A stretch of DNA of 64,000 nt. Source: an uncultured delta proteobacterium (GTDB lineage Bacteria > Desulfobacterota > Desulfobaccia > Desulfobaccales > 0-14-0-80-60-11). Positions 44,718-64,000 of the stretch are shown here, one piece after another. Position 1 is the first letter of the stretch, and every line of letters begins with the position of its first letter. The position numbers and the translations under genes are program-made. The stretch lies in assembly GCA_963812015.1 (NCBI GenBank), contig CAWETI010000003.1:2080001-2144000 (forward strand). The letters are read 5' to 3'. A model generated the notes under the pieces. It had not been told where the DNA came from and did no database searches. It worked only from the letters and a program-made list of their open reading frames with translations.

Positions 44718-44793
44718 GCGCCTGTAGCTCAGGGGACAGAGCAACGGACTTCTAATCCGTCGGTCGGAGGTTCGAATCCTCCCAGGCGCGCCA
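44718..44793 (+). tRNA. tRNA-Arg(TCT)
   Basis: GCGCCTG/CAGGCGC acceptor stem, GCTC/GAGC D-stem, ACGGA-CTTCTAA-TCCGT anticodon arm, GGAGG-TTCGAAT-CCTCC T-arm, encoded CCA. Confidence 0.97.
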
Positions 44794-44823: not shown

Positions 44824-46011
44824 TTATCTATTGTTCACTTGGTCAACGATATGGTCAACACTTTGCAGAATATGACTATCCAACCACTCGGTATATTGCC
44901 TCATGGCCTGGTGCAGATCATCCTCAGAGGGGGCCATATAGTGAACGTCCATACCTTGAAGGGAATGGCCTAAGATCGTATCCCGATACACCTTATCAAC
45001 TCCCGCACTCAGCATATTGGTTTTGACCGTCCGCCGTATATCGTGGAAGGTGATGCCGTTTTGCTGATCCTGCCCGTATGGTATCCCGGCCTTACCACAA
45101 GCTGATATAAACGATTTCTTAATCCCGCCGGCAGTCACGATGGGCTCATGGTGATAGGTGAGCACTAAATCATGGTGGATTGCCCGCGTGATGTCTGCAA
45201 GCACTCGCTTGACTTGATGGTTAATCGGTATCACCTTGGCCTTGCGCTCTTTGGTGAGGTCTGCGGGTAGTCTGATAACCCACTTCTCCCGGTCGATATG
45301 GGACCATTGTAGCGCCCGGAGTTCTCCGGTCCTCATGCCAGTATTGAAGGCTAAGATAAGAAAAGCTCTTAGATGATCAGGCGCCACGGCCACTATCTTA
45401 AGATATTCCTCAATGGTGAGGGTTCGCTTCCTGGCATTAGCCGCCTTTTTCAGTTTCCGTTTTACTGTCCTAAATGCCTTGACCGTCCGGCCGTCCACCA
45501 GGTCATTATCGAAGGCTTTGGTGACCATTGTCTTGACCAGGGATATTTCCATGTCAACGGTAGCGGGGGCTCGGCCATCTTCTTCTCTCTTGTCCTGGTA
45601 CTCTTCGAGGTCCAGAGGTTTTAAGCTGCTCACGATCCGGTTTCCAAATACCCGGTTAAAATTGGCGATTCCCTGCTTGATTCGGGTATAGGAAGAAAGT
45701 TTCTTGACCGGGCTCAAGTCAAGATACCACTCCGCAAGCTCGGTGAAGGTCATGCGCTCCGATGGTACTTTTTCCAGAATACCGGGATTCTCATATTTTT
45801 GGGCCTTGCGCTTGCCCTCTGCGGCCTTTGCTTCCTTAATGAGATACCCCACAACCTCCCGGCGCTGCGTGCCGTTGGCGAGCCGGTAATTAACCCAGTA
45901 GCGGACCTTTTTTGATCCCTTGGCCTTAACCAGGTCTGCCCCGCAAACACAAATCCGATTCTTGACCGCTTGCTTCTTGTGGCATACGGGGCACTCAGCT
46001 AAGATCGCCAT
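44824..46011 (-). CDS. Tyrosine recombinase/integrase with N-terminal Cys4 motif
   Basis: TGMRTGEL, TK, FHDIRRT, LGH and HY catalytic residues intact; N-terminal CPVC...CVCG. Confidence 0.93.
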   Translation of the reverse strand: MAILAECPVCHKKQAVKNRICVCGADLVKAKGSKKVRYWVNYRLANGTQRREVVGYLIKEAKAAEGKRKAQKYENPGILEKVPSERMTFTELAEWYLDLSPVKKLSSYTRIKQGIANFNRVFGNRIVSSLKPLDLEEYQDKREEDGRAPATVDMEISLVKTMVTKAFDNDLVDGRTVKAFRTVKRKLKKAANARKRTLTIEEYLKIVAVAPDHLRAFLILAFNTGMRTGELRALQWSHIDREKWVIRLPADLTKERKAKVIPINHQVKRVLADITRAIHHDLVLTYHHEPIVTAGGIKKSFISACGKAGIPYGQDQQNGITFHDIRRTVKTNMLSAGVDKVYRDTILGHSLQGMDVHYMAPSEDDLHQAMRQYTEWLDSHILQSVDHIVDQVNNR

Positions 46012-46210
46012 GGTCTTTCTCCTTGTGTCCGGATTCCTTCGTTATCCGATGCTCCAGAGCCTCCAGGGCCAGAGGTAGGACGGGAGTGGGAACCTGAACC
46101 CCTCGCTCCCATCTACTAACGGTCATTACATCGACACCTAACGCCTGGGCCAGCTTGGTTTGGGTCAGGGCCCACCGTTTTCGCCATTCGGTTAGATCGC
46201 GTCCCTTCAT
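45995..46210 (-). CDS. XRE-family HTH protein overlapping the integrase start
   Basis: LTQTKLAQALGVDVMTVSRWERG. Confidence 0.88.
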   Translation of the reverse strand: MKGRDLTEWRKRWALTQTKLAQALGVDVMTVSRWERGVQVPTPVLPLALEALEHRITKESGHKEKDHGDLS

Positions 46211-46244
46211 GGTCTTATTATAGTCGTTACGCCTATACTGTCAA
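46211..46244 (-). promoter_or_regulatory. Consensus sigma70 promoter giving a leaderless HTH-integrase transcript, with internal operator
   Basis: TTGACA-16 nt-TATAAT-6 nt-ATG; TATAG-N9-CTATA inverted repeat spanning the spacer and -10. Confidence 0.75.
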
Positions 46245-47624: not shown

Positions 47625-47686
47625 AAAAAGGGAAAGCCACGAACGCTCTTTTCCAGTCTTCTGACCGGATCAGGCCTTCGTGGCTT
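47625..47686 (-). terminator. Terminator-like hairpin after the His-rich peptide; 5' arm overlaps a GCC-ACGAA-GGC hairpin
   Basis: AAGCCACGAA...TTCGTGGCTT followed by TCCCTTTTT. Confidence 0.65.
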
Positions 47687-47714
47687 AATTCTTTAGCAGA
47701 TTCGCGGCTTTCCG

Positions 47715-47876
47715 TTAATGACAGCAGGTGTGCCCGTGTTGGTGATGCCCATCGTCATGGGCGTGCTCATGGGAATGTTCCGTAGCCTCGTGACTATGCT
47801 CATGACCGTCATGGCTATGGGACGCCCCTTCGTGCCGGTGTTCGTGCTCATGTTTGTCCTTGGAATGGCAACACAT
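47715..47876 (-). CDS. 53-aa His-rich, CCH-capped metal-binding peptide (Hpn-like)
   Basis: MCCHSKDKHEHEHRHEGASHSHDGHEHSHEATEHSHEHAHDDGHHQHGHTCCH (19 His, 4 Cys); SD AGGAGG 8 nt upstream; below the ORF-track size cutoff. Confidence 0.85.
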   Translation of the reverse strand: MCCHSKDKHEHEHRHEGASHSHDGHEHSHEATEHSHEHAHDDGHHQHGHTCCH

Positions 47877-47906
47877 CTTTCATCCCTCCTTTCCCTCTTT
47901 TCTATC

Positions 47907-47935
47907 AAGATAAACTGCCTCTTATCTCATGTCAA
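47907..47935 (-). promoter_or_regulatory. Sigma70 promoter of the His-rich peptide with an AGATAA-N8-TTATCT inverted repeat
   Basis: TTGACA-tgagataagaggcagtt(17 nt)-TATCTT on the minus strand. Confidence 0.6.
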
Positions 47936-48033
47936 TTGGACCAGCTTAGAATTAATTAACCAAGATTATGCAACCAACTTGACCAACTCTATCAAAAATT
48001 GATCTTAGGGACCTTTTCTCTGAGAGGCTGTGT

Positions 48034-48885
48034 CTAATCAGTGCTTAAGCGAAACGCCAGGGGGATTTCAATGGTCAACTTCTGACGGTTCAGGTCGGCG
48101 GGGAATGGAGGAAAGTGACCAACCTTGCGAATGGTTTCTTTGGCAGCTTCATCCAGCAGATCTTGCCCCGAGGAGCGGCTGATTCGGGAGGATTCGATCT
48201 GGCCCCCGGAGCCGATGGTAAATACCATGACCACTACCCCCTGGAGTTGGCGGCGGCGGGCCATGAGGGGATAATCTTTCTGTTTTTCCAGGAGTTGGCG
48301 GACCACCTTTAGATAGCCCTGGAGCGCCGAACCGGCCCCGGAGCCCGGCCCCTGGCCTTGGCCAATACCACCGCCGGCCCCGGTCCCCCGTCCCCCGCCC
48401 TGGCCCCCCGCGCCTGTGCCCGAAAGGCCACCCGGGACGCCCGGGCCACTGGCCCTGCTGCTGGTGATCGCGGTATCCGAGGGTTTAGCCCTGGTGATCG
48501 CGGGTGGCGGCGCCGGTGCAAGGATTACCGGGGCTACACTGGGTTCCAGCGGTGGCGGTGGAGCCAGCTTGATCTTGGGCGGCTTTGGAGGTTTGGCCGG
48601 AGGTTTATGGGGTGCGGGGGGTTGCGACGGCTTAGGCGCGACGGCATCTGGCCTAGTCACCGGGCTGGGCCGACCGCCGCCGCCACCGGCGGGGCCTGGC
48701 TTGAAGGGTACCAGGGTAATGGCTTCCACCGGGACCACCACTTTCGGCTTCGGGGGTATTTGGTGGAAGACCGCCACCACGGTGGCCACGATAAGGCCAT
48801 GGACCAGTAGGGAACCCAGCGCTCCCCAGAGAAACGCTCCCCGGGGATTCCAGGCCCCGCCCACTTGCTGATAACCCCAGGCCAT
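48034..48885 (-). CDS. tonB: Energy transducer TonB
   Basis: TM with SLLVH, Pro-rich linker, C-terminal YPLMARRRQLQG...SSG..LLD.AA. Confidence 0.9.
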   Translation of the reverse strand: MAWGYQQVGGAWNPRGAFLWGALGSLLVHGLIVATVVAVFHQIPPKPKVVVPVEAITLVPFKPGPAGGGGGRPSPVTRPDAVAPKPSQPPAPHKPPAKPPKPPKIKLAPPPPLEPSVAPVILAPAPPPAITRAKPSDTAITSSRASGPGVPGGLSGTGAGGQGGGRGTGAGGGIGQGQGPGSGAGSALQGYLKVVRQLLEKQKDYPLMARRRQLQGVVVMVFTIGSGGQIESSRISRSSGQDLLDEAAKETIRKVGHFPPFPADLNRQKLTIEIPLAFRLSTD

Positions 48886-48889
48886 TTGG

Positions 48890-49285
48890 CTACTTTTGCT
48901 CCACCTCGATGCCGATGCGCTGCACCTTAAGACCCCGGAGGCGGTCCATCACTTCGATGAGGCGACCGTGGCGGGTGTCGGTATCCGCGGCGATGATGGC
49001 TTGAGGTTCCTTGCCCTGTTGCTGGGCGGTGAACACCTTCTCGAAATCGCCATCCTGCGCCAGCTTGACCCCGTTGACCGCGATGTGGCCCTCCCGGTCT
49101 ATGCTGATGATGATGGGGACGCTCTCCAGTTTGTTGGCCTGGGCGGCCTTGGGCAGGGCGATGGCGAAGGTGCGGGGCATCATCACCGTGGCCGTCAACA
49201 GAAAGATGATGAGGATGACCAGGACGATGTCCACGAAGGGGGTCATGTTGATCTCGGTAATGGGCCCGTGGATGTGGCCTTTCAT
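48890..49285 (-). CDS. exbD: Biopolymer transport protein ExbD
   Basis: EINMTPFVDIVLVILIIFLLTA; I.AD....HG.LI.VMD. Confidence 0.92.
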   Translation of the reverse strand: MKGHIHGPITEINMTPFVDIVLVILIIFLLTATVMMPRTFAIALPKAAQANKLESVPIIISIDREGHIAVNGVKLAQDGDFEKVFTAQQQGKEPQAIIAADTDTRHGRLIEVMDRLRGLKVQRIGIEVEQK

Positions 49286-49977
49286 GCCAGCCTCCCCGCC
49301 TGGCGGGCAGCCTTGAACAGTTCCGCATCCGGGAGAGCGATCTCCCCGGTCCCGGCGGCGCCGTCCAGATGGGCCAGGAGCAGCTGCTCCAGAAACCGGG
49401 AACGCTCCTGGACCACGTGCAGGCGACGGTGGAAAAAGTTGTACATCACCACCGCGGGGATGGCCACCAGCAGGCCAATGGCGGTGGCCACCAGGGCTTC
49501 GGCGATGCCGGCCATGACTGCGGGGCCTCCGCCCCCCTCGGTCAGGGCCAGGTCCTTGAAGGCATGCATGATGCCCAGGACGGTGCCGAACAAGCCGATG
49601 AAAGGGGCGTTGGCTCCCAGGGTGCCCAGAAAGCTCAAGCGCCGCCCCAGGAAGAGGCCGACTCGGAGCCGCTCGCCTTCCATGAGGTCCTGGACCGCGC
49701 TCTTGCCCCGGGGAATCTCTTTGAGGCCCGCCAACAGCACCCGGGCTTCCAAACCGGATTCGGCCTCGCAGCGGGAAACGACCTGAGGCCAGTCGCCTTG
49801 TTTGAGAGCGGGTTCGATCTCGGCCACAAAGCGGTCCGGGTCAAAGCGACAGCGGTAAAAGGTTAGGGCCTTGTCGATCATGATCGCCACGGAAGCGACG
49901 CTCAAGCCCAGGAGCAGCCACAGCACCCAGGCGCTGCCGCCCAGAGCCATATTGAGCAGGGCCTTGGTTATATCCAT
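49282..49977 (-). CDS. exbB: MotA/TolQ/ExbB proton channel protein
   Basis: APFIGLFGTVLGIM and GIAEALVATAIGLLVAIPAVV.YN; SD GGAGG before ATG 49977. Confidence 0.92.
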   Translation of the reverse strand: MDITKALLNMALGGSAWVLWLLLGLSVASVAIMIDKALTFYRCRFDPDRFVAEIEPALKQGDWPQVVSRCEAESGLEARVLLAGLKEIPRGKSAVQDLMEGERLRVGLFLGRRLSFLGTLGANAPFIGLFGTVLGIMHAFKDLALTEGGGGPAVMAGIAEALVATAIGLLVAIPAVVMYNFFHRRLHVVQERSRFLEQLLLAHLDGAAGTGEIALPDAELFKAARQAGRLA

Positions 49978-49988
49978 GCATCCTCCCG

Positions 49989-50139
49989 AAAAAAAACAAG
50001 CCATGCGGCTGCGGTCCTTCCGGGCCGCGGTTGCCTTCATGGCTTGGATTTACGTTATTGAGCTGGTTAGTTCGATCTTCAGGGAGTTCAATCTCCCTGG
50101 ATGGCAGAAATTATAGTTCTCCTCGGCATCGGATGTCAA
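49989..50139 (-). promoter_or_regulatory. exbB promoter and attenuator-like leader (twin hairpins plus terminator)
   Basis: TTGACA-18-TATAAT; CAGGGAG-ATTGAA-CTCCCTG; 36 nt; GCC-ATGAA-GGC overlapping terminator CAAGCCATG...CATGGCTTG-T8. Confidence 0.7.
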
Positions 50140-50210
50140 CCAGAATCGTTTTTCAGGCTCCCCCGGTGCAAACGATGGCTTGCTTGATTTCCTCCCCTTT
50201 GGAATATTGC

Positions 50211-50356
50211 TTGACAGCAAATCCGGAAGGCGCTATATAAATTTGAAATTATCGGGGGGCATGAAGCCTCACCGTTTAGATTAGATTCCCAAAAAGCTTT
50301 TTAATGACCACGAAGGTCTGGCGGCAGAACGCCGCCCGATATTTGTGGTTTTTTTT
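50211..50356 (+). promoter_or_regulatory. TBDR operon promoter and attenuator-like leader (twin hairpins plus terminator)
   Basis: TTGACA-17-TATATA; GGGGC-ATGAA-GCCTC; 35 nt; GACC-ACGAA-GGTC overlapping terminator ACCACGAA...GGCGGC/GCCGCC...TTTGTGGT plus T run. Confidence 0.7.
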
Positions 50357-50561
50357 CGCCCGGTTTAGCCGGAGGTATTAAGGGCCAGCCGGGAGAGATG
50401 TTAACCAAAAGTAAGTAGGTAGGAATAGGAAGGGGGGGCGGCACCCCGGCAAGAGTCCCAGCCCCCCCTTCAGACCAATCCTCATTGCGGCAAGATCGGC
50501 CCGGTTTCTTTCTACCAGAACCAGGGCCGAGACGCAAACCGAAAGCGGAAGGAGAATAAAA

Positions 50562-52937
50562 ATGCGTCGATGGCTCTGGTGCGCAGCGATTTGTGGATTC
50601 TCGTGCTTATTGATCCTGGGATTACAGTCGCAAGCGCGGGCTCAAGAAGTGGAAGAAAAGGTCAAGGTCTTGGCCCCGGAAGAGGGCCAGAAGGGGGAAC
50701 CCCCGGCTACCGTCCAGACTGAAGGCCAAAAAGCGGAAACTCCGACTCCCGCCCCGGCTCCCAAGGAAAAAGCGGAGGCCCTGGAGAAGATCGTGGTGAC
50801 GGCCACCAGGACCGAGAGGAATCCGGACGACGTCCCGGCCAGCATTACGATCATCACCAAAGATGACATTAAGAAACAGAACATCCAGACGGTGGACGAG
50901 GCCCTGGCCCAGGTCCCCGGGGCCTTCGACCGCCGGGGCAAGGGCTGGCAAGACACCCTGGCTAACGTGAATCTCCGGGGCTTCCCGGGCGATAACCAGA
51001 AACGCACCCTGATCCTCTTGGACGGCCAGAATATCTCCACCGCTTACACCAACAACGTGGTCTGGAACAGCATGCCGGTGGAAAATATCGAGCGCATCGA
51101 AGTGATCCGGGGGCCGTTTTCCGCCCTCTACGGCGGCAGCGCCATGGGCGGGGTCATCAATATCATCACCAAGACCCCCCAGAAACTGGAAATGCTGGCC
51201 CAGGGCAGTTACGGCACCTATGATGCCTGGACCTCTTACCTGGGGGCGGGGGACCGCCTGTGGGATAAAGTGAGCATCCAGGTAGGGTTCAATTCTCGTA
51301 TCACCACCGGCTACCCCACCAGCCTGGTGCAAAAAACGACCGCCGCCTTAGCCACTACGACCAAAACCAATGTGGTGGGCTGGCAGCCTACCTTAACCAC
51401 CACCGGCACCCCCACGAACACCATCGGCAACACCGGCGATAATAACTGGAAGGATTACAGCTTCAACGGCAAAATCAGCTGGGATATCGCCCCGGGCCAT
51501 AAGGTCACCTTCAGCACCCTGCAGAGCTGGTACGACTATGGCTATGCCAGGTACAATTCCTACTTGAACAATTCAGCCACCGGCGCCAGGGTGACTAGTG
51601 GGACCGTGGGCTTGTTCGGCACCAATACGCAGTTCAGCAGTCTCACCCAAGGCGCCTTCTTGAGCGGCGATGGCCAGAATCAAACCCAGGTTTACAACCT
51701 GAATTCCGAACACAAGCTCACGGAGACCACCAAAGTCAAGGTCCATGCCGGCCTGGTGAACCAGCCGGACAACTGGTACACCACGCCCAGTTCCTCCAGC
51801 GCCCTGACGACGTTCGGCGGCGGCCCGGGGACCGTGTCCAGCACTCCCAGTCAGAATTGGGTGGGGGAGGTGCAGGTGGACCAGGCCATCGGACAGAAGC
51901 AGCAGTTGGTGGGCGGCCTCTCCTATAATGCCGGCTGGGCGCGCAACTCGCAATATAACCTGTACGACTGGCGGAGCCCTGGCTCGCATATAAACTTCAG
52001 CTCGCTGGGCGGCGGCCGGGACAGCAATATCGGGGCCTATCTTCAGGACGAAATCGCCTGGCATCCCAAGTTCAATACGGTGCTGGGGGTGCGGTTGGAT
52101 CGGTGGGAGACCTTTGGGGGCAGTTACATGAAAGCCACCGGCACTCCTATTGTGGACCTCCCCAGCCGGGACCAAACTGCGGTCAGCCCCAAGCTCGCCG
52201 CGCTCTACCGCCCCTGGGAGTGGATGACTTGGAAGGCCTCGGTGGGCCGCTCCTTCCGGGCCCCCAATATTTACGAACTCTACGTCACCTGGCAGTCCAG
52301 CACCGGCACCCTGTATAAGAGCAACCCCGATCTTAAACCCGAGACCGCCCTCTCCTGGGAGATCGGCACCACCCTGAAACCCTTTAAAGGGACCACGTTC
52401 ACCGCCACCTATTTTCAAAATTTCGTCAATGACTTGATTTACCGGACTACTGATCCTGCCGATCCAACGGGCAAGACCCAGAACTATTTTAATGCCGCCA
52501 AGGCCCAGATTCGAGGGGTGGAGATAGAAATTAACCAGAAGCTCTGGTCCTGGCTGGAAGTCTTCGGCAACACCACCCTGGTGGACCCCAGGATCAAGGA
52601 AAACCCCTATAATCCGATTTCGGTGGGCAAAAATCTCACCTATACCCCCCGGCAGCAATTCAACTTTGGGGTCACGGCTACATACTGGAAGGTCAAGGCC
52701 AACCTTTCAGGCCGCTATAACAGCCGACTGTCGACCCGGGACGACAACGGCGATTCTGTCTATGGGGTTTACGGCGCCTATGATCCCTTCTTCACCTTGG
52801 ACTCCAAAATAATCTTTAGCCCCGTGAAGTATGTGGACATGTCCTTTGCGGTAGATAACATGCTCAACCGGGAATACTACTACTATTACCGCACTCCCGG
52901 CCGGACCATCTGGACCATGCTGACGCTTAAATATTGA
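50562..52937 (+). CDS. TonB-dependent outer-membrane receptor
   Basis: Signal peptide, EKIVVTATRTE TonB box region, IERIEVIRGPFSALYGGSAMGGVINIITK plug, FRAPNIYELY, NPDLKPE and terminal aromatic residue. Confidence 0.95.
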   Translation: MRRWLWCAAICGFSCLLILGLQSQARAQEVEEKVKVLAPEEGQKGEPPATVQTEGQKAETPTPAPAPKEKAEALEKIVVTATRTERNPDDVPASITIITKDDIKKQNIQTVDEALAQVPGAFDRRGKGWQDTLANVNLRGFPGDNQKRTLILLDGQNISTAYTNNVVWNSMPVENIERIEVIRGPFSALYGGSAMGGVINIITKTPQKLEMLAQGSYGTYDAWTSYLGAGDRLWDKVSIQVGFNSRITTGYPTSLVQKTTAALATTTKTNVVGWQPTLTTTGTPTNTIGNTGDNNWKDYSFNGKISWDIAPGHKVTFSTLQSWYDYGYARYNSYLNNSATGARVTSGTVGLFGTNTQFSSLTQGAFLSGDGQNQTQVYNLNSEHKLTETTKVKVHAGLVNQPDNWYTTPSSSSALTTFGGGPGTVSSTPSQNWVGEVQVDQAIGQKQQLVGGLSYNAGWARNSQYNLYDWRSPGSHINFSSLGGGRDSNIGAYLQDEIAWHPKFNTVLGVRLDRWETFGGSYMKATGTPIVDLPSRDQTAVSPKLAALYRPWEWMTWKASVGRSFRAPNIYELYVTWQSSTGTLYKSNPDLKPETALSWEIGTTLKPFKGTTFTATYFQNFVNDLIYRTTDPADPTGKTQNYFNAAKAQIRGVEIEINQKLWSWLEVFGNTTLVDPRIKENPYNPISVGKNLTYTPRQQFNFGVTATYWKVKANLSGRYNSRLSTRDDNGDSVYGVYGAYDPFFTLDSKIIFSPVKYVDMSFAVDNMLNREYYYYYRTPGRTIWTMLTLKY

Positions 52938-52956
52938 TGGGGGCGGCACACGACTG

Positions 52957-53949
52957 ATGACTGGCAGAAACTTTATAATCTCCCGATGGGCCTGGGTGAT
53001 GGGCGGATTGGTGCTGCTCCTGGGCCTCAGCGGGACCATCCTGGGGACCTCCACCGAGAGGCCCGGCCCGGGGGGAGCCCCGGGGCAAAACCTCTCCCGG
53101 GAAGCCCACCGGGTGGTCCTCTTCGAATGTTACGAAACCGTTGCGGCCCTCCAGGCCTGGGATCGCGTCGTCGGGATTTCCCGCTATGCCTATGACAATG
53201 ACCTCCTGAAGCGGCTGCTGCCCCATCTCCGGCAGATTCCCTCGCCTGGCTCCGGCTTCGACGTCAACCTGGAGGCCTTGCTGGCCGTTAAGCCTGACCT
53301 GGTGGTGACCTGGACGCGCAAGCCGGAAACCCTTGAGCACCTGAAACGCCAGGGAATTCCGGTACTCACGTTTTATCCCGAAAGCCTGGTTGACCTGTAC
53401 CGGGAACTCCAGCAATTGGGCCAGGTGTTAGGCCAGGAGGCTCGGGCCCGGGAGGTAGCGGGCTCCATGGCCCGGAGCCTGGCCGCCCTGCAAGCGCGCC
53501 TGGCCGGGGTGCCGGAAGAATCCTGGCCCCGGGTGGCATGGCTGTGGGGCAAACCCACCACCATCAATGGGAACCGAGGAGTGATGGCCGAGTTGATCCG
53601 GATGGCCGGGGGCCGCAACGTGGGTGCGCATCTGGATAGTTTGAACCAGGAAATCTCCATGGAGACCATCATCGGGCTGTCTCCTCAAGTGCTGGCCATT
53701 TGGGGCTCGGCCTCCTATACCGCCCAGGACCTGCTCCGGGACCCCAAGTGGTCCTCCACCCCGGCAGTACAAAGCCAGCGGGTATTCAAGGCGGCCCGGG
53801 TCTCCACCTGGTCACCCCGGGCGGTGGTGCTGGCCTGGTGGCTGGGTCACTGCTTTCATCCCCAGGTGATTTCCGCGGTCGACTGGCGTCAGGCCGCCGA
53901 CGACATTTACCGGCAGTGTTTCGGGATTCCCTATGAGGAAGGCCCATGA
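52957..53949 (+). CDS. BtuF/FecB-type periplasmic binding protein
   Basis: DRVVGIS, NLEALLAVKPDLV, AGGRN, ISMETI and TPAVQSQRVF. Confidence 0.88.
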   Translation: MTGRNFIISRWAWVMGGLVLLLGLSGTILGTSTERPGPGGAPGQNLSREAHRVVLFECYETVAALQAWDRVVGISRYAYDNDLLKRLLPHLRQIPSPGSGFDVNLEALLAVKPDLVVTWTRKPETLEHLKRQGIPVLTFYPESLVDLYRELQQLGQVLGQEARAREVAGSMARSLAALQARLAGVPEESWPRVAWLWGKPTTINGNRGVMAELIRMAGGRNVGAHLDSLNQEISMETIIGLSPQVLAIWGSASYTAQDLLRDPKWSSTPAVQSQRVFKAARVSTWSPRAVVLAWWLGHCFHPQVISAVDWRQAADDIYRQCFGIPYEEGP

Positions 53950-54947
53950 GGAGTAACTCCTGGCTCTACTGGGGGTTGATCCTATCGCCCCTGCCAGTGT
54001 TTCTCCTGGCCCTTCAGGTGGGAGCGTATCCCGTCTCCTTGTCCGACCTGTGGCGCCTGCTGGCTCTAACCCCCAGCCAATCGCCTCTGCCGGAGCAGAT
54101 CCGGGCCATCATCGTGGACGTGCGGTTGCCCCGGATTGTCCTGGCCATGCTGGTGGGGCTGTCCCTGTCGGTCTCCGGCGCCACCTTGCAGGCGGTGTTC
54201 CGCAATCCTCTGGTGGACGCCTTCATCCTGGGCCTTTCCGCGGGCGCCGCCTTCGGTTGCGCCGTGACCGTAGCCTGGCTGCCCATGGTGCCCATCCAGG
54301 TAGGGGCCTTTGTCTGCGGTCTGGTTGCCGCGGTGCTGACCTTTACTATGGCTCGCATCCGGGGGGAAGTGCCGACCCTGTCGCTGATTCTGGCCGGCGT
54401 GGTGGTGTCCGCCTTTTTCACCGCCCTGGTCTCCATTATCAAGTTTCTGGTGGACCCCATGAAGCTGGCCAGCATTGTGTTCTGGCTCATGGGTAGCCTG
54501 GCCCTGGCGGACTGGCCTTCGGTTATCAAGGTCCTTCCCTGGATGGCGGCGGGGGTCGCCATTCCCTGGCTGGGGCGCTGGCGCCTTAATGCCCTGTCCA
54601 TGGGGGATGCTGAGGCCAAGGCCCTAGGAGTTGACGTGGCCCGGGAACGGGGTCTATTTATCCTGGCCGCCTCCGTAGCCGTAGCCGCGGCGGTGTCAGT
54701 GAGCGGCATCATCGGCTGGGTGGGACTGATGATCCCCCACATCGTGCGCATGGCGGTGGGGCCGGACCATCGCCGGGTGATACCTCTGTCCATGGCCGCC
54801 GGGGCCAGTTTCCTGGCCCTGTCCGATACCGTGGCCCGCTCTACGGCTTCGGGGGAAATCCCTGTGGGGATTATCACCACTTTGGCCGGCGCCCCCTTTT
54901 TCATCTACCTGATGAAAAAAGGCGGTCAGGATTCCTGGAAGGCATGA
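53946..54947 (+). CDS. FecCD/BtuC-type ABC permease
   Basis: VRLPRI, QAVFRNPLV, FWLMGSL, SGIIGWVGLMIPH and EIPVGIIT. Confidence 0.93.
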   Translation: MRSNSWLYWGLILSPLPVFLLALQVGAYPVSLSDLWRLLALTPSQSPLPEQIRAIIVDVRLPRIVLAMLVGLSLSVSGATLQAVFRNPLVDAFILGLSAGAAFGCAVTVAWLPMVPIQVGAFVCGLVAAVLTFTMARIRGEVPTLSLILAGVVVSAFFTALVSIIKFLVDPMKLASIVFWLMGSLALADWPSVIKVLPWMAAGVAIPWLGRWRLNALSMGDAEAKALGVDVARERGLFILAASVAVAAAVSVSGIIGWVGLMIPHIVRMAVGPDHRRVIPLSMAAGASFLALSDTVARSTASGEIPVGIITTLAGAPFFIYLMKKGGQDSWKA

Positions 54948-55711
54948 TCCGGGCCCGCGACCTCCATCTGCGTCTCAACGGGCGAGGCATCCTGAACGGC
55001 GTGAGCCTCGCGGCCCATCCCGGGGAGGTCACGGTGATCGTGGGGCCCAACGGCTCCGGCAAGACCACCCTGATGTTGTGCCTGAGCGGGCAGTTGACGC
55101 CGGACCGGGGGGCCATTACCCTGGCGGACCACAATCTTAATGGCCTCAAACGCCGTACCCTGGCCCGGATATTGGCCACCGTGCCCCAGGAGCACCATCC
55201 CGTATTTCCTTATGCGGTGCGGGAGGTGATCCTCCTGGGCCGGGTCGCCCGGGTGGGTTATTGGTCGCAACCCGGACCCCGAGATCTGGCGGTGGTGGAG
55301 GAAGTTCTCAATCTGCTGCATCTTCAGCTCCTGGCGGACAAGCCCTATACTCACATCAGCGGCGGGGAGCGGCAACTGGTGCTCATCGGTCGGGCGTTAG
55401 CCCAGGAGCCGCAAATCCTCCTGTTGGACGAACCCACTAGCCACCTGGATTTTAAAAACCAGGTGCTGATCCTGAAGCTGATCCGGGAGTTGGCTAAAAA
55501 CCAGGGACTGACGGTGCTGCTCACCCTGCACGACCCCAACCTGGCGCTGCTCTTTGCCGACCGTGTGGCTCTCCTGGATGAGGGGCGGGTGGTGGCTGAG
55601 GGGACTCCCGTCGAGGTCATACACCCTGAGGCAATGGCCTCGCTCTACGGCATCCCGGTGGAAATGCTGGCCCAGGGAGATAAACGACTGCTGTACCCCA
55701 AACTGACATGA
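54944..55711 (+). CDS. FecE/BtuD-type ABC ATPase
   Basis: GPNGSGKTT, SGGERQ, LLLDEPTSHLD and LHDPNLA. Confidence 0.93.
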   Translation: MIRARDLHLRLNGRGILNGVSLAAHPGEVTVIVGPNGSGKTTLMLCLSGQLTPDRGAITLADHNLNGLKRRTLARILATVPQEHHPVFPYAVREVILLGRVARVGYWSQPGPRDLAVVEEVLNLLHLQLLADKPYTHISGGERQLVLIGRALAQEPQILLLDEPTSHLDFKNQVLILKLIRELAKNQGLTVLLTLHDPNLALLFADRVALLDEGRVVAEGTPVEVIHPEAMASLYGIPVEMLAQGDKRLLYPKLT

Positions 55712-56541
55712 TCGCCATTTCGAACCTGACCAAGTATTACAGGAGTATCCTGGCCCTGGAAGATCTGACCCTGGAGATCGGGGCGGGGGAAGTCTTCGGG
55801 CTACTGGGTCCCAACGGCGCGGGCAAGACCACCACCATCAAGATCCTCACCGCCCTGGCCTTTCCTACCCGGGGGACCGCCCGGATCGCCGGCTTCGACG
55901 TGGTCAGGGAGCGCCCCCAGCTGAAACCCCTCATCGCCGTTTGCCCTCAAGAGATCAACCTGGACCGGGAACTCACCGCGTTTGAAAACCTCTGGTTTTA
56001 TGGCCGTCTGTTTAAGGTTCCGGAGATCTCCCGCCGCATTATGGAACTCTTGGAATGGGCCCAGTTGGAACAGCGGGCCTATGACCGGGTTAAAGGTTTT
56101 TCCGGCGGCATGCAGCGGCGTTTGTTGATTGCCCGGGCGCTCATGTCCCGCCCCCGGGTGCTCTTCCTGGATGAGCCCACCGTGGGCCTGGACCCCCAGA
56201 TTCGGCGGCAACTGTGGGACATGATCCGGCAACTTCAGGGCGAAGGGATAACGATTCTCCTGACCACCCACTACATCGAGGAAGCCGAATCGCTCTGCGG
56301 CCGGGTAGGCGTCCTTAATAAGGGCCGTCTTATCGCCCTGGATTCCCCCCAAAACCTCACCGCCGGGGTGGGCGGCTATGTGGTGGAATCCGTGAACGGC
56401 GCTCGGCGGTCCTATACCTTAGTGAAAGACCGGGAAGCTGCCTACGCCAGGGCTCAAGAGGAGACCGCGGGCGTGCTTATCCGCCAGGCCAACCTGGAGG
56501 ATGTCTTTATTCAGCTTACGGGGGAGCGCCTGAGCCAATGA
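55708..56541 (+). CDS. ABC-2 (DrrA/NodI-like) exporter ATPase
   Basis: [38 protein letters not shown] and [10 protein letters not shown]. Confidence 0.92.
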
Positions 56542-57284
56542 CCATGAACTGGGCCACCATCTTTTTAAAGGACATGCTCCTGTTTCAGCGGCGGCTGCTC
56601 CGGCTGGGGTATGTGATGTCCACGCTGTTTGCCCCCCTGCTCTATCTGGTGGCCTTCGGTCTGGGGTTGGGCAAGCAGGTGGCCATGCGCAGCGGGGTAA
56701 CCTATCTGGATTTTCTCCTGCCCGGGTTAGTGGCTATGAGTTCCATGACCAACTCCTATACCTGGGTGGCTAACAGCCTGAACATGGGCCGCCTCTACTT
56801 CCGCACCTTTCAGATTTATCTGCAGGCGCCGGTGTCTCCCTGGGAGATCGTCGCCGGCCAGACCCTGGCCGGCATGGTTCGGGGCCTGTTTGCCGCCTCG
56901 GTGATCCTGGGCCTGGGATTGGTCCTGGGGACCCATTTGCATTTCACCCTGTTCTTTGTGCTGGGGCTGCTGCTTAACGGCCTGGTTTTCGCCGCCTTCG
57001 GGGTGGTGGTGGGTCTCAAATCCAAATCCCATGAGGATACCGCCACTTTCACCAATTTTTTCATACTCCCCATGGCTTTTTTCTGCGGCACCTTTTTCCC
57101 TGTGGACTCCATGCCCTGGTGGGCCCAGAAGATCATCTATCTGCTGCCCTTGACCCATACCAACCAGTTGCTGCGGTCGCCTGTCTGGGGTTCGGAAACT
57201 ATGGTTTCTCTGGTCTTGTTGGGTGCAGCCGCCGGTTTCTGCATAGCCCTATCCATCCTGTTCATCCGGAGGTACAGCGAATGA
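56538..57284 (+). CDS. ABC-2 type exporter permease
   Basis: YLDFLLPGL, PMAFFCGTFFP...P.W and LPLTH. Confidence 0.9.
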   Translation: MTMNWATIFLKDMLLFQRRLLRLGYVMSTLFAPLLYLVAFGLGLGKQVAMRSGVTYLDFLLPGLVAMSSMTNSYTWVANSLNMGRLYFRTFQIYLQAPVSPWEIVAGQTLAGMVRGLFAASVILGLGLVLGTHLHFTLFFVLGLLLNGLVFAAFGVVVGLKSKSHEDTATFTNFFILPMAFFCGTFFPVDSMPWWAQKIIYLLPLTHTNQLLRSPVWGSETMVSLVLLGAAAGFCIALSILFIRRYSE

Positions 57285-60200
57285 CGGATTCGCTCATTAA
57301 AGGCGTGGCCATAATGTGGAACGCTTATGTGCCCACTCTGGTCAGCGCAGCCCGGGAATTTCCCTGGATAGATCTGAAGGTCTATTCCCACCGCCTGGTG
57401 GGGGAAAACCCGGAAGTCCTGGACCGGGCCTTGCAAGATATGGAGTCCGCCCAATTTATCCTGCTTTATCGCACTCCTGACGCCTTCTGGGAGAGCGTGG
57501 ACCAGCGACTCAAGCAACTGGCGGACCACGTTCCCCTCATCTCCACCGGCGGTGACCCTTCCCTGTGGACCCTGTCGTCGGTGAATCTTGAGATCGCCGC
57601 CAATGCCTCTAATTACATTATCCGTAACGGCCTGGAGAACTTCCGGCGCCTGCTGGCCTATCTCGGCAAAGAGGTCCTGGGCCGGGAACTGGAGGTTCTG
57701 CCGCCCCAGGAGCTTCCCTGGGAAGGGTTCTATCACCCCCGGGCCCAGGGACATTTTGAGCGTCTGGAAGATTACCTGGCCTGGTACCGGGACCAGGGCT
57801 GGTCCCAAGAGCCCCTGGTGGGGATGATGTTCTCCCGGGGGGATTGGGTCACCCCCAACCTGGAACTGGAAGATTATCTCATCCAAGCCTTGGAGGCTCG
57901 GGGTCTGGGGGTGATCCCGGTGTTCTACTATTCCTTCAAAGACGAGAATCTGGGAAACCGGAGCGGCGAAGAGATCATCCGGGATTATTTCCTGAACCAC
58001 GAGGGCCGCCCCCGGATCGCGGCGCTCATCAAGCTCACTGCCTTTCTCCTGGCCAGCCGGCGGGGCACCGGCCGCGACCCGTCCACGGCCCGCCCTGGCC
58101 AGGCATTATTGGCGCAACTCGACGTGCCGGTGATCCAACCCCTCACCTCGTATTACAAGACCACGGCCCAATGGGAGGCAGACCCCCAGGGGCTGGGGGC
58201 CGAAGTGGGCTGGAGCCTGGCCCTGCCGGAATTCGAGGGGGTCATCGAGCCATTGATGGTGGCCGCAGGGCTCTCCCACGAGGAATTGGGGGCCGAACTC
58301 ATCGCCGGTCGGGGACCCATCCCTAACCGGGCGGATCACCTGGCGGAACGGTTGGCGCGCTGGGTCCGCCTGCGGCAGAAAACCTCGACGGCACGCAAGG
58401 TGGCCATCATCCTGCACAACAACCCTTGCGCCTCGGTGGAGGCCTCGGTGGGGGCCGGGGCCCACCTGGACACTTTGGAAAGCACGGCTCGAATCCTCCA
58501 GACCCTGAAGCGGGCGGGATATGCCATTGAGAATCCCCCCGCGGACGGCAAAGAACTCATCGACACCATCATGGGCCGAAAGGCCATCAGCGAGTTCCGT
58601 TGGACCACGGTGGAGGAAATCATCAGCAAGGGGGGCCACCTGGCCCTGGTGCCGGAAGCTGACTACCGCGCCTGGTTCGGCCTCCTTCCGTCCACCCTGC
58701 AGGCGCGCCTCATCGAAGCCTGGGGCGAGCCCCCCGGCCAGGCCCAAAACGGCATCCCCGCGGCGATGGTCCACCAGGGACAGATCGTGGTCACCGGCGT
58801 GCTTTTTGGGAACGCGGTGGTCTGCGTCCAGCCCAAGCGGGGCTGCGCCGGGGCGCGGTGTGACGGCCGGGTTTGCAAAATCCTCCACGACCCGGATGTG
58901 CCGCCGCCCCACCAATATCTGGCCACTTACCATTATCTGGATAAAGGGTTCGGCGCTGATGTGGTCCTGCACGTGGGCACCCACGGCAACCTGGAGTTTC
59001 TGCCGGGAAAGACCGTGGGGCTGTCCGGGGGTTGCTGCCCCGACGCCGTCCTGGGTCATCTGCCCCATCTTTATATCTACAACGCCGACAACCCGCCGGA
59101 AGGCACCATGGCCAAGCGCCGCAGCTACGGGGTCCTGGTGGACCATATGCAGACGGTGATGACCTCCTCCGGCCTCTATGATGAACTGGGCGAGTTGGAC
59201 CGGCTGCTGGGAGAATACGAGCGTTTGAAGGACTTGGAACCGGGCCGGGCTCACCTGGTGGAGCACCTGATCCTGGAGACCCTGGAGAAGAGCCGCCTCA
59301 ACCAGCAATTGTCCCTGACCCCGGAGATTTCTTTCGATGAGACGGTGCGCCGCATTCATGAGAGCCTGTCGGTGCTGCGCAACACCGCTCTCCCCGATGG
59401 CATGCACATCTTCGGGGAATTGCCCCAGGGGGAACGGCGGGCTGATTTTCTCCACGCCATCCTGCGCTTTCCCGGCGGAGGCCCCTCCTGGCGGCGACTC
59501 CTGGCCCGGTTGCTGAAGCTCAATCTGGAAGACGACGAATCGGGACGGGCCGCGGAGGCCGTGGACCAGGCCGGGCGTACTCTTATCAGCCGTTGGCTGG
59601 CGGCCCCGGAGCAGAACCTTACGTCCTTGATCCGGGAAATCGCTCCGGAAGCGGACCTGGATGCCCTCGAAAGCGACCTGGCCTTCTTCGATACCCGGCT
59701 CCAGGACCTGGTGGACCGGCTGGAGGCTTCCCGGGAGATGGAGGCGCTGCTCCGGGGGTTCGCCGGCGGCTATATCCCCCCCGGACCCTCCGGCCTCATC
59801 ACCCGGGGCCGGGACGACGTCCTGCCCACGGGCCGGAATTTTTACACCCTGGACCCCCAGCGGGTGCCCAGCCGCACCGCCTGGGAGGTGGGGCAGCGCC
59901 TGGGCCAAGCCCTCCTGGACAAATACTTCACCGAAACCGGGGAGTTTCCGGAAAACGTCGCCCTCTTCTGGATGGCCAACGACATCATGTGGGCCGACGG
60001 CGAAGGCATGGCCCAGATTATGTACCTGTTGGGGGTGAAACCCCGCTGGCTAAGCAACGGCCGGGTCCAGGGGTTCGATATCATTCCCTTAAGTGAACTC
60101 AACCGCCCCCGCATCGACGTGACGGTAAGGGTGTCGGGTATCACCCGGGACAATTTCCCCAACTGCGTGGAGTTACTGGATGAAGCCATCCAGGCGGTGG

Positions 60201-61153
60201 CGGCCCTGCCGGAAGACCCCGCCCAAAATTTGGTCCGGCGCCACAGCCTGGAACTCATGGAGAAACTTGGCCACAACCCCGGGGACGGCGCGGCCTGGCG
60301 CCAGGCCACCTATCGCATCTTCGCCAGCAAACCCGGCACCTACTCCGCCGGCACCCAACTGGCGGTGTACGCCTCCGCCTGGCAGGAGGAGACGGACCTG
60401 GCCCAGGTCTTCCTCTACTGGAACAGCTATGCCTACGGCAAAGATGTCTTCGGCGCCGAAGCCGCTCCGTCCCTGGCCCACGCCCTGAGCCACGCCTCGG
60501 TGACCTACAACAAGGCCGTCACCGATGAGTACGATCTGTTCGGCTGCTGTTCTTATTTTGGCAACCACGGCGGCCTCACCGCCGCGGCCCGGCACCTGTC
60601 CGGCAAAGAGGTCAAGACCTATTTCGGCGACACCCGGGACCCGGAACGGGTGACGGTGCGCCATTTGTCCGAGGAAATCCGGCGGGTGGCCCGGGCCAAG
60701 CTCTTGAACCCCAAGTGGATCGACGGCATGAAGAACCACGGCTACAAGGGCGCCGGCGAGATCAGCAAACGGGTGGGGCGGGTCTACGGCTGGGAAGCCA
60801 CCACCCAGGAAGTGGATGACTGGATCTTTGACGATATCACCCGGACCTTCGTCCTCAACCCGGAAAACCGGGAGTTCTTCCAGAAGGAAAATCCCTGGGC
60901 CCTGGAGGAGATCGCCCGGCGCCTGCTGGAGGCCGAGCAGCGGGGTCTCTGGCAGGCCGATCCCGAAGTCCTGGCGGAACTGAAGCAGCTCTACGTGGAG
61001 GTCGAAGGCTGGCTGGAAGAAAATATGGGAGAGGCCGCGGGGGGCCATTTTCAGGGTGGGGCCGTGGACGTGGTCACCGCCGACGAGGTGGAAACCTGGA
61101 AAGCGGCCCTGCACAAGACCCTGGGGACAATCTTCACCGGAGGTAAGAAATGA
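57281..61153 (+). CDS. CobN/magnesium chelatase H family subunit
   Basis: [54 protein letters not shown] and RLLEA..RGLW; ATG 57281 overlaps the permease stop (ATGA). Confidence 0.93.
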
Positions 61154-63111
61154 CGCTATCTCGATCTGTATATCCGTTTGGGGCCATCGTCGGGCAGGAA
61201 CGGTTGAAAAAATCCCTGATCCTGAACGCCATCAATCCCCGCCTGGGCGGGGTGCTGATCCGGGGGGAGAAAGGTACCGCCAAGTCCACCGCGGCCCGGG
61301 GCCTGGCGGAGTTGCTGCCTCCCATCCGGGTGGTGGCCGACTGCCCCTTCCACTGTGACCCCGGCGAGCCCGAGCAGTGCTGCGATTCCTGCCGGAAACG
61401 GGGGGTCCAGGACGCCCTGCCCACCCGGGAGCGGCCCATGCCGGTGGTGGACCTGCCCCTGGGCACCACCGAGGACCGGCTCCTGGGAACCATCGACCTG
61501 GAGAAGGCCATCAAGACCGGGGAGAAACATTTTGAACCGGGCATTCTGGCTGCCGCCCATCGCGGCATCCTCTATGTGGATGAGGTCAACCTGCTGGACG
61601 ACCACCTGGTGGATGTCCTCCTGGATGCCGCAGCCATGGGGGTGAACGTGGTGGAGCGGGAGGGTATCTCCTTCACCCACCCGGCCCGGTTCATCCTGGT
61701 GGGCACCATGAACCCGGAAGAGGGCGAGCTTCGCCCCCAACTCCTGGACCGCTTCGGGCTTTGCGTGGAAATCGGCGGGTTAAAAGACCCGCAGGCCCGC
61801 ATGGAGGTGGTGGAGCGCCTCCTGGACTATGAAGAAGCCCCCGAATTGTTTATCAATCAGTGGCAACCGGAGCAGGAACGGCTGCGCCAATCCATCACTG
61901 CGGCCCGGGAGCGTCTGGCGGCGGTAAACTTCGCCAAAGACATGCTGAATCTGATCACCACCATCTGCCTGGATCAGGGAGTGGATGGCCACCGGGCCGA
62001 CATTTATATGCTCAAGACGGCCCGCACCCTGGCGGCCTTCCACGAGCGCCAGGAAGTCACCGAAGACGATGTCCGGGAGGCCGCGGAGCTGGTGCTCCCC
62101 CACCGGCTGCGCCGCCAACCCTTCAGCGAAGCCCAGATGGATCAGGAAAAGCTGGAGGAGAGTATCCGCAAACACCAGCAGCAGCACGAACCGCCACCGC
62201 CATCAGATTCTCCGCCCCCGGAGGAACCTCCTCCCCCTCCCCCATCCGAGACGCCTCCGGGAAGCGGGGAAATTTCCTTTGAGGCCGGCTCCCCCTTCCC
62301 GGTGCGCCCCCTGGACCTGCCCCACGACCGCCAGCCCAAGGAGTCCAAGGGCCGTCGCACCCGGGCCGTCACCAACGACCGCAGCGGCCGTTACGTGCGG
62401 GCGGCCATGACCCCGGCGGGGCCGCCGGACCTGGCCTTGGACGCCACCCTCCGGGCCGCCGCCCCTTATCAGCCCGTGCGGGACAAAGGCAACCTGGCCG
62501 TGGCCATTGCTGAGTCCGATCTGCGTCACAAGGTCAGAGAAAAGCGCATCGGCCACCACATCCTGTTCGTGGTGGACGCCAGCGGCTCCATGGGGGCCAA
62601 TCAACGCATGGTGGAAACCAAAGGCGCCATCCTCTCCCTCCTCCTGGACGCCTACCAGAAGCGGGAGCGGGTGGGGCTGGTGGTCTTTCGGGGGGAGCAG
62701 GCCCACCTGACGCTGCCCTTTACCCACAGCATCGAGCAGGCCCGGAACTGCCTGGAGGACCTCCCCACCGGGGGCAAGACGCCGCTCCCCCGGGCCCTGC
62801 AACTGGCTCACGAAGTGATTCAGCGGGAGAAGCTCAAACATCCTAAGGATGCCTTTCTCCTGGTGCTCATCTCCGACGGCAAACCCAATATCAGCCTGGG
62901 AGGCGGCTCTGCCCTGGCCGACACCCAAGAGATGGCGGCGCATCTCCGGGGCCTGGGCGCCAACTCCCTGGTGCTGGACACCGAGGCCGGGTTCCTCAAT
63001 CTCAGTTGCCTTCCCCAGGTGGCCGCCGAACTTAAGGGAAAATACTACAAAATCGAGGACATCCGGGCCTCAGAAGTCGTGGCCCGCATCGACGAGATCA
63101 TGGTCGGGTAA
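61150..63111 (+). CDS. ChlI/ChlD-type chelatase AAA+ / vWA fusion subunit
   Basis: [46 protein letters not shown], Pro-rich linker, MIDAS DASGSM and SDG. Confidence 0.93.
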
Positions 63112-63122
63112 GGTCTAGGCGG

Positions 63123-63998
63123 CTAAGTCGCGGCCTTTGGCCGGCGCTCCTTCCTGGGTCCCTTGGAGTGGGAAAGCTCCCCGGCGCGGCCTCGTTCCGC
63201 TTTAAGGCGCTCCAGGAGCATGGCGGCGGGCTCAAAGTCCCGGCCTTCCCGGCGGGCCAGTTCGGCTTCGGTGGGCACCAGCTCCCCCCGGAAGGCCTTG
63301 GCCAGGACAGCCTGGGTGAGCTTCTCGGCCCGGGCCGTGGCCATGGCCACCCGCGCCTCGATGGCGTCGGCCAACCGGAACAGGGCCTCCACCCGGCGGA
63401 CGATTTCGTGTTGTTCGGCGAAAGGAGGAAGAGGGATGAACACATCGCTCAAAATGGCAATGTTAATATTTTTCTGGGCCGTAGCCGGAGCAAGTTCCGC
63501 TAAATTGTTGCGGGCCATGCGGACGCAATAATCCGAAAATTTGGGATTACAGAGATTATCGTCGCAAATGAGGCCTACGACGCTATCCGGGAAGCAGGCC
63601 GGATAAGTCAGAATCGCTGAAGCTGCAATGTTCGCCGCAATAGAAATAACCACCGTTCCGGCAGGCCAGAGGCGACTTTGGGCAAGCCCTGCCTCGCTGT
63701 ATGTCTGTTTGTGTGTGGTGATTTCCCCATTTGATTGCGCCACATCTCCGGTTTGAATGAAAGGATAGGGACCACCATAGAGATGTGCCGCATCACGAGG
63801 ACGATGCCGGGATTTGCCGCGATTCAACTCCCCCAGAAATGGGAGACGAACCCATTGCCACTCATCCGGGGTGTCCGAAAGAGTCATACGGTCAACAGAA
63901 CCCGGCTCAAGGTTGGCTGGGGGCCTGTGAACTCTACGACCTTCCAAGGTTGCCTGCTGACATTCCGTCCTGTAAAGGGATTGGCGCTTTTTAGTGAT
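63123..63998 (-). CDS. hsdS: Type I restriction-modification specificity subunit (3' part; frame open to window end)
   Basis: P.EWQWVRL, AQKNIN, IPLPPFAEQHEIVRRVE and AVLAKAFRGELVP; no in-frame stop up to the window end. Confidence 0.9.
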   Translation of the reverse strand: MTKKRQSLYRTECQQATLEGRRVHRPPANLEPGSVDRMTLSDTPDEWQWVRLPFLGELNRGKSRHRPRDAAHLYGGPYPFIQTGDVAQSNGEITTHKQTYSEAGLAQSRLWPAGTVVISIAANIAASAILTYPACFPDSVVGLICDDNLCNPKFSDYCVRMARNNLAELAPATAQKNINIAILSDVFIPLPPFAEQHEIVRRVEALFRLADAIEARVAMATARAEKLTQAVLAKAFRGELVPTEAELARREGRDFEPAAMLLERLKAERGRAGELSHSKGPRKERRPKAAT

Positions 63999-64000
63999 TC

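Follow-up and report, generated by a model that had tools for sequence, protein, structure and literature searches.

What does a CobN-family chelatase do when it is encoded in a transport operon, away from any genes for corrin-ring synthesis? The question is raised by the genes at 47715-63111 of a 64,000-nucleotide window (contig CAWETI010000003.1 of assembly GCA_963812015.1, positions 2,080,001 to 2,144,000) from an uncultured delta proteobacterium of the phylum Desulfobacterota. Here a TonB-dependent receptor, two ATP-binding cassette (ABC) systems, a CobN-family subunit and a ChlI/D motor are encoded together, and an earlier reading of the DNA (the original prediction) saw in them a system that imports a metallo-tetrapyrrole, removes or swaps its metal, exports the empty ring and buffers the metal in a peptide. 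We find that the locus is most likely an accessory system for acquiring nickel, whose chelatase is a variant with an altered metal site. That it serves nickel acquisition, by whatever mechanism, we consider probable; our best guess at the mechanism, offered tentatively, is a nickel-starvation scavenging operon that would use ATP to remove nickel from an imported tetrapyrrole such as F430. The locus ties a large CobN-annotated clade to nickel through two control systems and gives it a residue-level signature, and its job is testable by expression under nickel limitation, ligand binding and ATP-dependent nickel release.

The locus is as tightly organized as the original prediction had it. Eight plus-strand genes run from the receptor (50562..52937) through a class III periplasmic binding protein (52957..53949), a FecCD-type permease (53946..54947, PF01032), the importer ATPase (54944..55711), a DrrA/NodI-like ABC-2 ATPase (55708..56541) and an ABC-2 permease (56538..57284) to the cytoplasmic CobN-family subunit (57281..61153) and a ChlI/ChlD AAA+-vWA fusion (61150..63111); six of the seven junctions are 4-nt ATGA overlaps and the remaining one is a 19-nt gap. 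Four minus-strand genes diverge from them: exbB (49282..49977, PF01618), exbD (48890..49285, PF02472), tonB (48034..48885, PF03544) and a peptide gene (47715..47876). The ChlI/D fusion passes TIGR02442 (810.7 bits, cut-off 779.45) with intact Walker A/B, arginine finger and MIDAS motifs. A programmed frameshift in chlD yielding a separate ChlI was considered and rejected, as six copies share no slippery site in the linker.

The CobN-family protein belongs to a distinct clade. It scores 1793.4 bits on NF004646 (PRK05989.2-4; cut-off 1468), a model that other clade members also pass, and falls below the cut-offs of TIGR02257 (806.1, cut-off 822.05) and the ChlH/BchH model (782.8, cut-off 829). 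Trees were computed with FastTree (59 rows) and IQ-TREE (26 of those rows), the references being drawn from plasmid records and identified by gene context, with B. theta HmuS not among the rows. In both trees the clade, with members from Desulfobacterota, Bacillota, Fibrobacterota and methanogens, has a support of 100; it is sister to a group holding four CobN references (support 93-97), and groups with neither canonical CobN, BchH nor the HmuS-like rows. Scores above 1000 bits on NF004646 occur in 37 of 301 phylum genomes (24 above the cut-off, the others split or partial), and the clade also occurs in Bacillota, Fibrobacterota, Nitrospirota and methanogens. Two variations were seen along the way: in about ten phylum genomes (loci L300-L302 and L318-L323) the clade cobN is split in two near residue 775-800 with its cysteine motifs retained, and loci L166, L163, L093 and L309 carry a second, cysteine-free sister-group CobN beside the Cys-rich one.

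Cysteines define the clade. Cys383, 522, 527, 532, 1089 and 1090 occur in every one of the 97 clade sequences compared (rows 1-97 of an alignment of 100, leaving out three sister-group rows) and are absent from the references. In the PDB entry 9UK9, the CobSTN preprint (bioRxiv 10.64898/2026.07.21.739949) places two cobalt ions at H554, E593 and D1100. When aligned to that chain, the window protein has His568 and Glu607 at the first two positions and Cys1090 at the third. Three of the six cysteines fall in the stretch aligned to the gating loop of domain III. Position 1091, corresponding to the second cavity His of HmuS when counted from the end of the LSLDHxxEFMGG motif (B. theta HmuS being outside the alignment), is Cys in 80 of the 97 sequences and Ser in the window protein. 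The predicted model (predicted local distance difference test, 87.7; predicted template modelling (TM) score, 0.91; residues 104-1280) has a class I chelatase fold, with a TM score of 0.81 to M. tuberculosis CobN (7C6O). No membrane helix or signal is predicted in the window protein, and a C-terminal helix is predicted in five of five HmuS-like paralogues of relatives. Together with the clade cysteines, this suggests that the enzyme is cytoplasmic and has a thiolate-rich site of a kind that would suit a soft metal.

The host makes B12 by the CbiK/CbiD route, separately from this locus. A search of the rest of the genome for cbiK found it, along with genes of the cbiD route in an operon of cbiA, C, L, D, ET, F, G, cobD and cbiB, as well as cobS and a btuB operon in which BtuF is fused to CbiZ. 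B12 synthesis or uptake loci have five B12 riboswitches between them, and the window copy has none. As predicted, there are no cob/cbi ring genes within the 64-kb window and no recognisable cobalamin riboswitch: the only Rfam match at gathering score is a tRNA, and no credible match appeared at E ≤ 10 over 46000-51000. The separate route, the clade's full support and the Asp-to-Cys1090 replacement bear out the prediction that this protein is not a biosynthetic CobN, and the label cobN in such genomes should not be taken as B12 synthesis.

Evidence on the metal comes from control. The original prediction, correct that no Rfam riboswitch serves the locus, had missed an RNA leader that heads both arms and is absent from Rfam. 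Behind a promoter-like site, each copy has two hairpins with A(N)GAA loops, separated by a spacer; the downstream one overlaps an intrinsic terminator in its 5′ arm. In the main-operon leader (50256..50356, plus strand) the pentaloop hairpins lie at 50256-50270 and 50306-50318; in the exbB-arm leader (49989..50099, minus strand), hairpin 1 spans 50099-50080 and hairpin 2 spans 50043-50033, overlapping a terminator that extends to 49989. As the exbB arm has its own leader copy behind a perfect sigma-70 promoter (50110..50139, minus strand, 12 of 12 matches), the exbB start is most likely 49977, 3′ of the leader terminator, rather than 50040. Leader loops are mostly of five bases and the hairpins are mostly 27-38 nt apart. 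Hairpin 1 precedes 67 of 87 pattern matches (shuffled mean, 19); in 23 hand-picked leaders, six of its seven pairs show two-sided changes, its covariation score is reached by 0 of 500 shuffles and exceeds that of slid controls, and pairing in the terminator holds in 94.7% of cells. Among relatives, 36 of 41 have the pattern (none for the control), as do 95 of the 301 phylum genomes (reversed-pattern control, four genomes).

The company that this leader keeps points to nickel. Of 99 first or second open reading frames behind it, 62 were scanned, yielding 14 TonB receptors, eight CbiM/NikM, seven DUF4198 (which we take to be NikK), four TonB, four binding proteins, three DUF3842, three porins, two flavin-reductase-like proteins, one each of PDGLE (presumably NikN), CobN, FmdE and a transposase, and 13 without a match; none of the 62 belongs to ring-synthesis enzymes or iron-specific families. 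The leader also heads cooT-DUF3842 genes in the phylum, and two DUF3842-cooT pairs are present in this genome (C2:1659957-1660626 and C2:1087792-1088392). DUF3842 is found in 89 of the 95 leader genomes and NikR in 14 of 95, compared with NikR in 128 of the 206 others, a difference that kinship inflates; NikR occurs in 13 of the 116 DUF3842 genomes of the phylum, making the two a near-exclusive pair. Probably the leader is read by DUF3842, with CooT. The DUF3842 fold has no PDB match better than E 0.5, and the Atlas gave DUF3842 clusters only. ANTAR-type dual-hairpin antiterminators likewise have two loop-conserved hairpins of which the second overlaps an intrinsic terminator; theirs are hexaloops, whereas the leader here has an A(N)GAA pentaloop with mostly 27-38 nt between hairpins, and the ANTAR domain (PF03861) has no match in this genome or in the control genomes, which makes the negative uninformative. 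At three loci of a relative (G027; L158, L161 and L162) the leader is followed by a TonB receptor and a tetrapyrrole-methylase-family protein with an apparent signal peptide.

Across the clade, a second and unrelated control system takes the leader's place. We took upstream DNA for 20 of the 37 phylum genomes scoring above 1000 bits on NF004646 and counted matches to the NikR consensus site of delta-proteobacteria (PMC545781) at 0-1 mismatch only, because matches with two mismatches occur at control frequency. Nine of the 20 loci have the leader at the operon head, all in DUF3842 genomes; five have a NikR site, each in a genome that has NikR and lacks DUF3842; one has a B12 riboswitch only, and five show no control element, two of these because the upstream DNA was not covered. 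A nikR gene directly precedes the receptor in L067, the sole nikR among 99 loci. Because two unrelated control systems point to nickel in 14 of the 20 loci and a minority points to cobalt or B12, the metal handled is most likely nickel. Of the cargo options named in the original prediction (corrinoid, heme or F430), regulation thus favours the nickel-bearing one and disfavours corrinoid and heme. This genome has NiFe hydrogenase and CO-dehydrogenase-family genes, and searches of it gave no NikR match and no methyl-coenzyme M reductase (MCR) match. A NikR-like palindrome in L315 was dropped as it lies inside the receptor gene, and a two-mismatch site in L327 (G132 C1:497974), before a putative B12-independent methionine synthase, is a control-level match.

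Two observations outside the phylum touch on the same metal. In PMC12350162, CobN1 of Methanothermobacter marburgensis, which is CobN-annotated, lies outside a cob cluster role and is induced by nickel limitation, rises from ~7e6 to 2.4e9 (about 330-fold); it drops about fivefold under iron limitation, whereas CobN2 falls. On a Runella plasmid (L178:1-11010), a receptor, a urease-accessory-like gene and hmuT/U-like genes accompany an HmuS-like cobN that sits between hypF and hypCDE, and this position inside a hyp cluster is another link of the fold to nickel.

What the operon carries is less clear-cut. The receptor is 66-69% identical to three relatives' receptors that head HmuS/BtuS-type operons, two of the three behind B12 riboswitches, a kinship that fits a tetrapyrrole-like cargo. 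It passes none of the B12, heme or siderophore receptor models: its best NCBIfam score is to a heme-receptor model (212.6, cut-off 316.85), and it reaches 174.5 on BtuB (cut-off 599.7), with the binding protein at 49.9 on BtuF (234) and the permease at 261.3 on BtuC (461). Scanning metagenomes with the receptor turned up no relative. The best of the binding protein's 23 PDB matches is H. pylori CeuE/NiuB (E 5.7e-33), which binds Ni-(His)2 (PMC5140060); BtuF is at 1e-11 and heme binders are weaker. Two CeuE histidines in the aligned stretch are not matched in the binding protein. The predicted metallo-tetrapyrrole cargo is favoured by receptor kinship with HmuS/BtuS-type operons, while the closeness of the binding protein to a Ni-(His)2 binder speaks against it. 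F430 is the one abundant biological nickel-tetrapyrrole, and many members of the clade come from methanogens or from anaerobes that live where methanogens do; Thermoanaerobacter kivui and a Methanosarcina are among the cultured carriers.

Which genes belong to the module was judged from 79 clade loci, of which 34 with flanks of 5 kb or more upstream and 3 kb or more downstream were used and 45 dropped; the loci are not independent. The grouping of receptor, importer, ABC-2 pair and ChlI/D with the chelatase is borne out in bacteria: among 20 well-flanked bacterial loci, 16 have the receptor, 17 the FecCD permease, 16 the ABC-2 permease and 19 ChlI/D, with all four in 12, and exb/tonB genes occur in eight, cob/cbi genes in three and the His peptide in none. 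The 14 well-flanked archaeal loci have FecCD in eight, ABC-2 in four and ChlI/D in eight. The exporter, which together with the importer was what supported the original prediction, does not bear that weight. Homologues of the ABC-2 permease are found in 31 of 41 relatives, compared with any CobN in 12 of 41, and close ones in 14 of 17 within the genus; among 23 loci displayed with flanks of 1.5 kb, one has the permease adjoining cobN, and this genome has a third, solitary copy. The ABC-2 pair is not specific to the chelatase module. ABC-2 systems, moreover, need not export, as CcmAB and NosFY illustrate.

The peptide, predicted to buffer the metal as part of the system, proved to have a separate distribution. 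The 53-residue product (minus strand; 19 His and 4 Cys, with Cys-Cys at both ends) is found in 33 of 41 relatives and in 17 of 17 genus relatives, often near nikM/cbiM genes, and in none of the 79 surveyed clade loci; one relative (G028) has a copy beside its clade locus. It has no Pfam match. Its gene has a sigma-70-like promoter site of its own (47907..47935, minus strand), with a similar site upstream in relatives, and lies 157 nt behind tonB. The ratio of non-synonymous to synonymous polymorphism (pN/pS) is 0.052 over 28 distinct copies, indicating purifying selection; with changes mainly at third codon positions, we rejected the idea that the gene is an RNA decoy rather than a protein gene. 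It is a real protein, the product of a lineage-wide core gene and likely a metal store outside the module; it is short and His-rich with Cys-Cys pairs, and Hpn-type His-rich nickel storage peptides are a possible comparison. The terminator of the gene (47625..47686, minus strand) carries a pentaloop hairpin like that of the leaders, a feature of most copies, and no gene follows it; the hairpin may allow the 3′ end to be extended under regulation, stabilise the mRNA or titrate the reader protein.

Known systems share parts of this design. The HmuYRSTUV system and HmuS/BtuS of Bacteroidota (PMC12583661, PMC6460266; PDB 9D26) also combine a TonB receptor with a CobN fold bearing a cavity His, and salvage of metal from an imported ring has been proposed for them. 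HmuS removes iron from heme, a precedent for a CobN fold taking metal out (PMC12583661), and BtuS is predicted to salvage metalloporphyrins (PMC6460266, citing Rodionov 2003). HmuS, however, is membrane-anchored and goes with HmuT/U, whereas the window protein has no predicted membrane helix and is encoded beside an inner-membrane importer and a ChlI/D motor; the second HmuS His is Cys or Ser in the Cys-rich clade, and the locus is under nickel-type control. With CobNST and CobN-ChlID (7C6O, 9UK9) it shares the fold, the metal-site His and Glu and an AAA+/vWA partner, and differs from CobNST in the Cys replacing the cobalt-site Asp, five further invariant cysteines, the lack of a cob cluster and a host on the CbiK route. 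Helicobacter NiuBDE (CeuE/FecDE; PMC5140060; PDB 4INO, 4LS3) has the same kind of class III binding protein, FecCD permease, TonB receptor and nickel control but no chelatase; here the two aligned CeuE histidines are not retained, and an RNA leader controls the operon in a NikR-less genome. A literature search, with most subscription papers outside its reach, found no account of the clade's function, the leader, a role for DUF3842 or F430 scavenging. PMC3087415, PMC10846266 and PMC11247825 add no function for the clade, and PMC12583661 calls the function of CobN-annotated clusters in methanogens and anaerobes unclear; the datasets of the latter may already place the Cys-rich clade.

In the mechanism that we propose, shortage of nickel would lead the twin-hairpin leader to permit terminator read-through on both arms. 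The TonB system and the class III ABC importer would then carry a nickel-containing macrocycle, for which F430 or a related nickel-tetrapyrrole is the best candidate, into the cytoplasm, where the Cys-rich CobN subunit would hold it in its central cavity while the ChlI/D motor spends ATP to drive the nickel onto the His/Glu/thiolate site. The released nickel would go to hydrogenase and CO-dehydrogenase maturation. Disposal of the empty ring may fall to the ABC-2 pair, though this is also a solitary gene pair in the lineage, and the His peptide, as the lineage's general metal store, would merely be carried along. Were F430 indeed the cargo, nickel would be recycled along this route within methanogenic communities.

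Several points weigh against this mechanism or its nickel assignment. All characterised enzymes coupled to ChlI/D or CobS/T insert metal, and HmuS removes it NADH-dependently, with no such motor described (PMC12583661). The nearest solved relative of the binding protein is a binder of Ni-(His)2 and not of a ring. The metal response of the leader is deduced from the genes that it accompanies, and the leader could sense cobalt, because CbiM-family genes also carry cobalt. B12 riboswitches precede clade loci L163 and L316, and L309 has one in tandem with the leader (the only one of the nine leader loci to do so). The ABC-2 pair is missing from 4 of the 20 well-flanked bacterial loci and common without cobN. 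M. marburgensis CobN1 is likened to the window protein by size alone (143 versus 143.7 kDa), and PMC12350162 assigns it no function. The mechanism proposed for the clade is drawn, finally, from sequence and context.

Among the alternatives, one keeps nickel scavenging and changes the cargo to a non-tetrapyrrole chelate such as Ni-His2 or a metallophore, with CobN and ChlI/D acting as an ATP-driven machine for nickel release, storage or loading. The kinship of the binding protein to CeuE/NiuB, nickel-type regulation and a soft-metal site of six invariant cysteines would all suit it; we nonetheless think it unlikely, given that the full chelatase fold and cavity residues are retained, that the receptor family is common to HmuS/BtuS-type operons and that the CeuE histidines are not. 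Equally concerned with nickel (or cobalt) is a forward chelatase that inserts or swaps the metal into an imported or home-made ring, giving a new bacterial nickel-tetrapyrrole that is perhaps exported by the ABC-2 pair. The known class I enzymes with an AAA+ motor all insert metal, biosynthetic CobN forms the sister group of the clade and tetrapyrrole-methylase-like genes stand under the same leader in G027, but cob/cbi genes are near just 3 of the 79 loci, the host lacks an MCR match, and spending scarce nickel on a new cofactor would suit a starvation regulon less well, so that this reading strikes us as quite improbable.

Cobalt or corrinoid salvage, BtuS-like, would have the leader sensing cobalt or both metals and the operon stripping or remodelling corrinoids. 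The riboswitches at L163, L316 and L309 argue for it, as do the Ni/Co range of the CbiM family and a B12-riboswitch btuB operon directly after a second copy of the operon in this genome. NikR-type operators nevertheless stand in for the leader in NikR genomes, uptake under B12 control and CbiZ remodelling are encoded separately, and receptor and binding protein score far under the BtuB and BtuF cut-offs; we rate it quite improbable too. An hmu-like role in heme-iron acquisition is very improbable: the top receptor score and the HmuS precedent favour it, but the receptor remains below that model's cut-off, the protein falls outside the HmuS clade and has no membrane anchors and no HmuT/HmuU neighbours, and no iron-specific family appears in the 62 frames behind the leader. 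Least credible, at next to no probability, is an ordinary cobaltochelatase for de novo B12 synthesis. The annotation (cobaltochelatase CobN, NF004646) and the sister position to canonical CobN suggest it, and already disfavouring it are the cbi genes, cobD and cobS named above, mostly behind B12 riboswitches, the failure to find CobN in 15 of 17 genus relatives searched, and the replaced cobalt-site Asp.

A second conserved RNA accompanies the receptor gene. A structured element at 50425..50560 (plus strand), directly 5′ of the ribosome site and start of the receptor gene, has a z-score of -3.6 and two-sided changes in 8 of 14 consensus pairs over 12 copies. It goes with the receptor family under the pentaloop leader, under a B12 riboswitch (L026) or under neither (L156). 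It is not in Rfam, and no credible Rfam match was found around the leader and second element of locus L155. A cargo-sensing or translation element is possible. The boldest combination, in which anaerobes without MCR harvest nickel from F430 through a class I enzyme run in reverse, whose thiolate-rich site may hold a metal or an Fe-S centre, an antiterminator read by DUF3842/CooT takes the place of NikR across roughly one third of the phylum and the second RNA may sense the cargo, we regard as doubtful; if true, it would give F430 its first biological fate and supply the first de-chelatase driven by ATP.

The module behaves as accessory cargo, CobN being present in 2 of 17 same-genus genomes searched. 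The whole block sits in a 32-kb element integrated at tRNA-Arg(TCT) (44718..44793, plus strand), which forms its left end; a 51-bp repeat of the 3′ part of the tRNA closes the element 32 kb off, outside the window, and a tyrosine integrase (44824..46011, minus strand, PF00589) follows the tRNA. The genome has a second operon copy, whose CobN is 76% identical, in a different tRNA island; cooT and DUF3842 adjoin this copy, the His peptide is absent and the B12-riboswitch btuB operon comes directly after. A third ChlI/D fusion in the genome (C3:1736588-1738573, 66% identical) is solitary, without cobN. Within the element, a GC-rich non-coding stretch (46200-47600 of the window) is repeated at several genome sites. 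A type I restriction-modification set directly follows chlD (63123-64000), and the element also carries primase- and excisionase-like genes.

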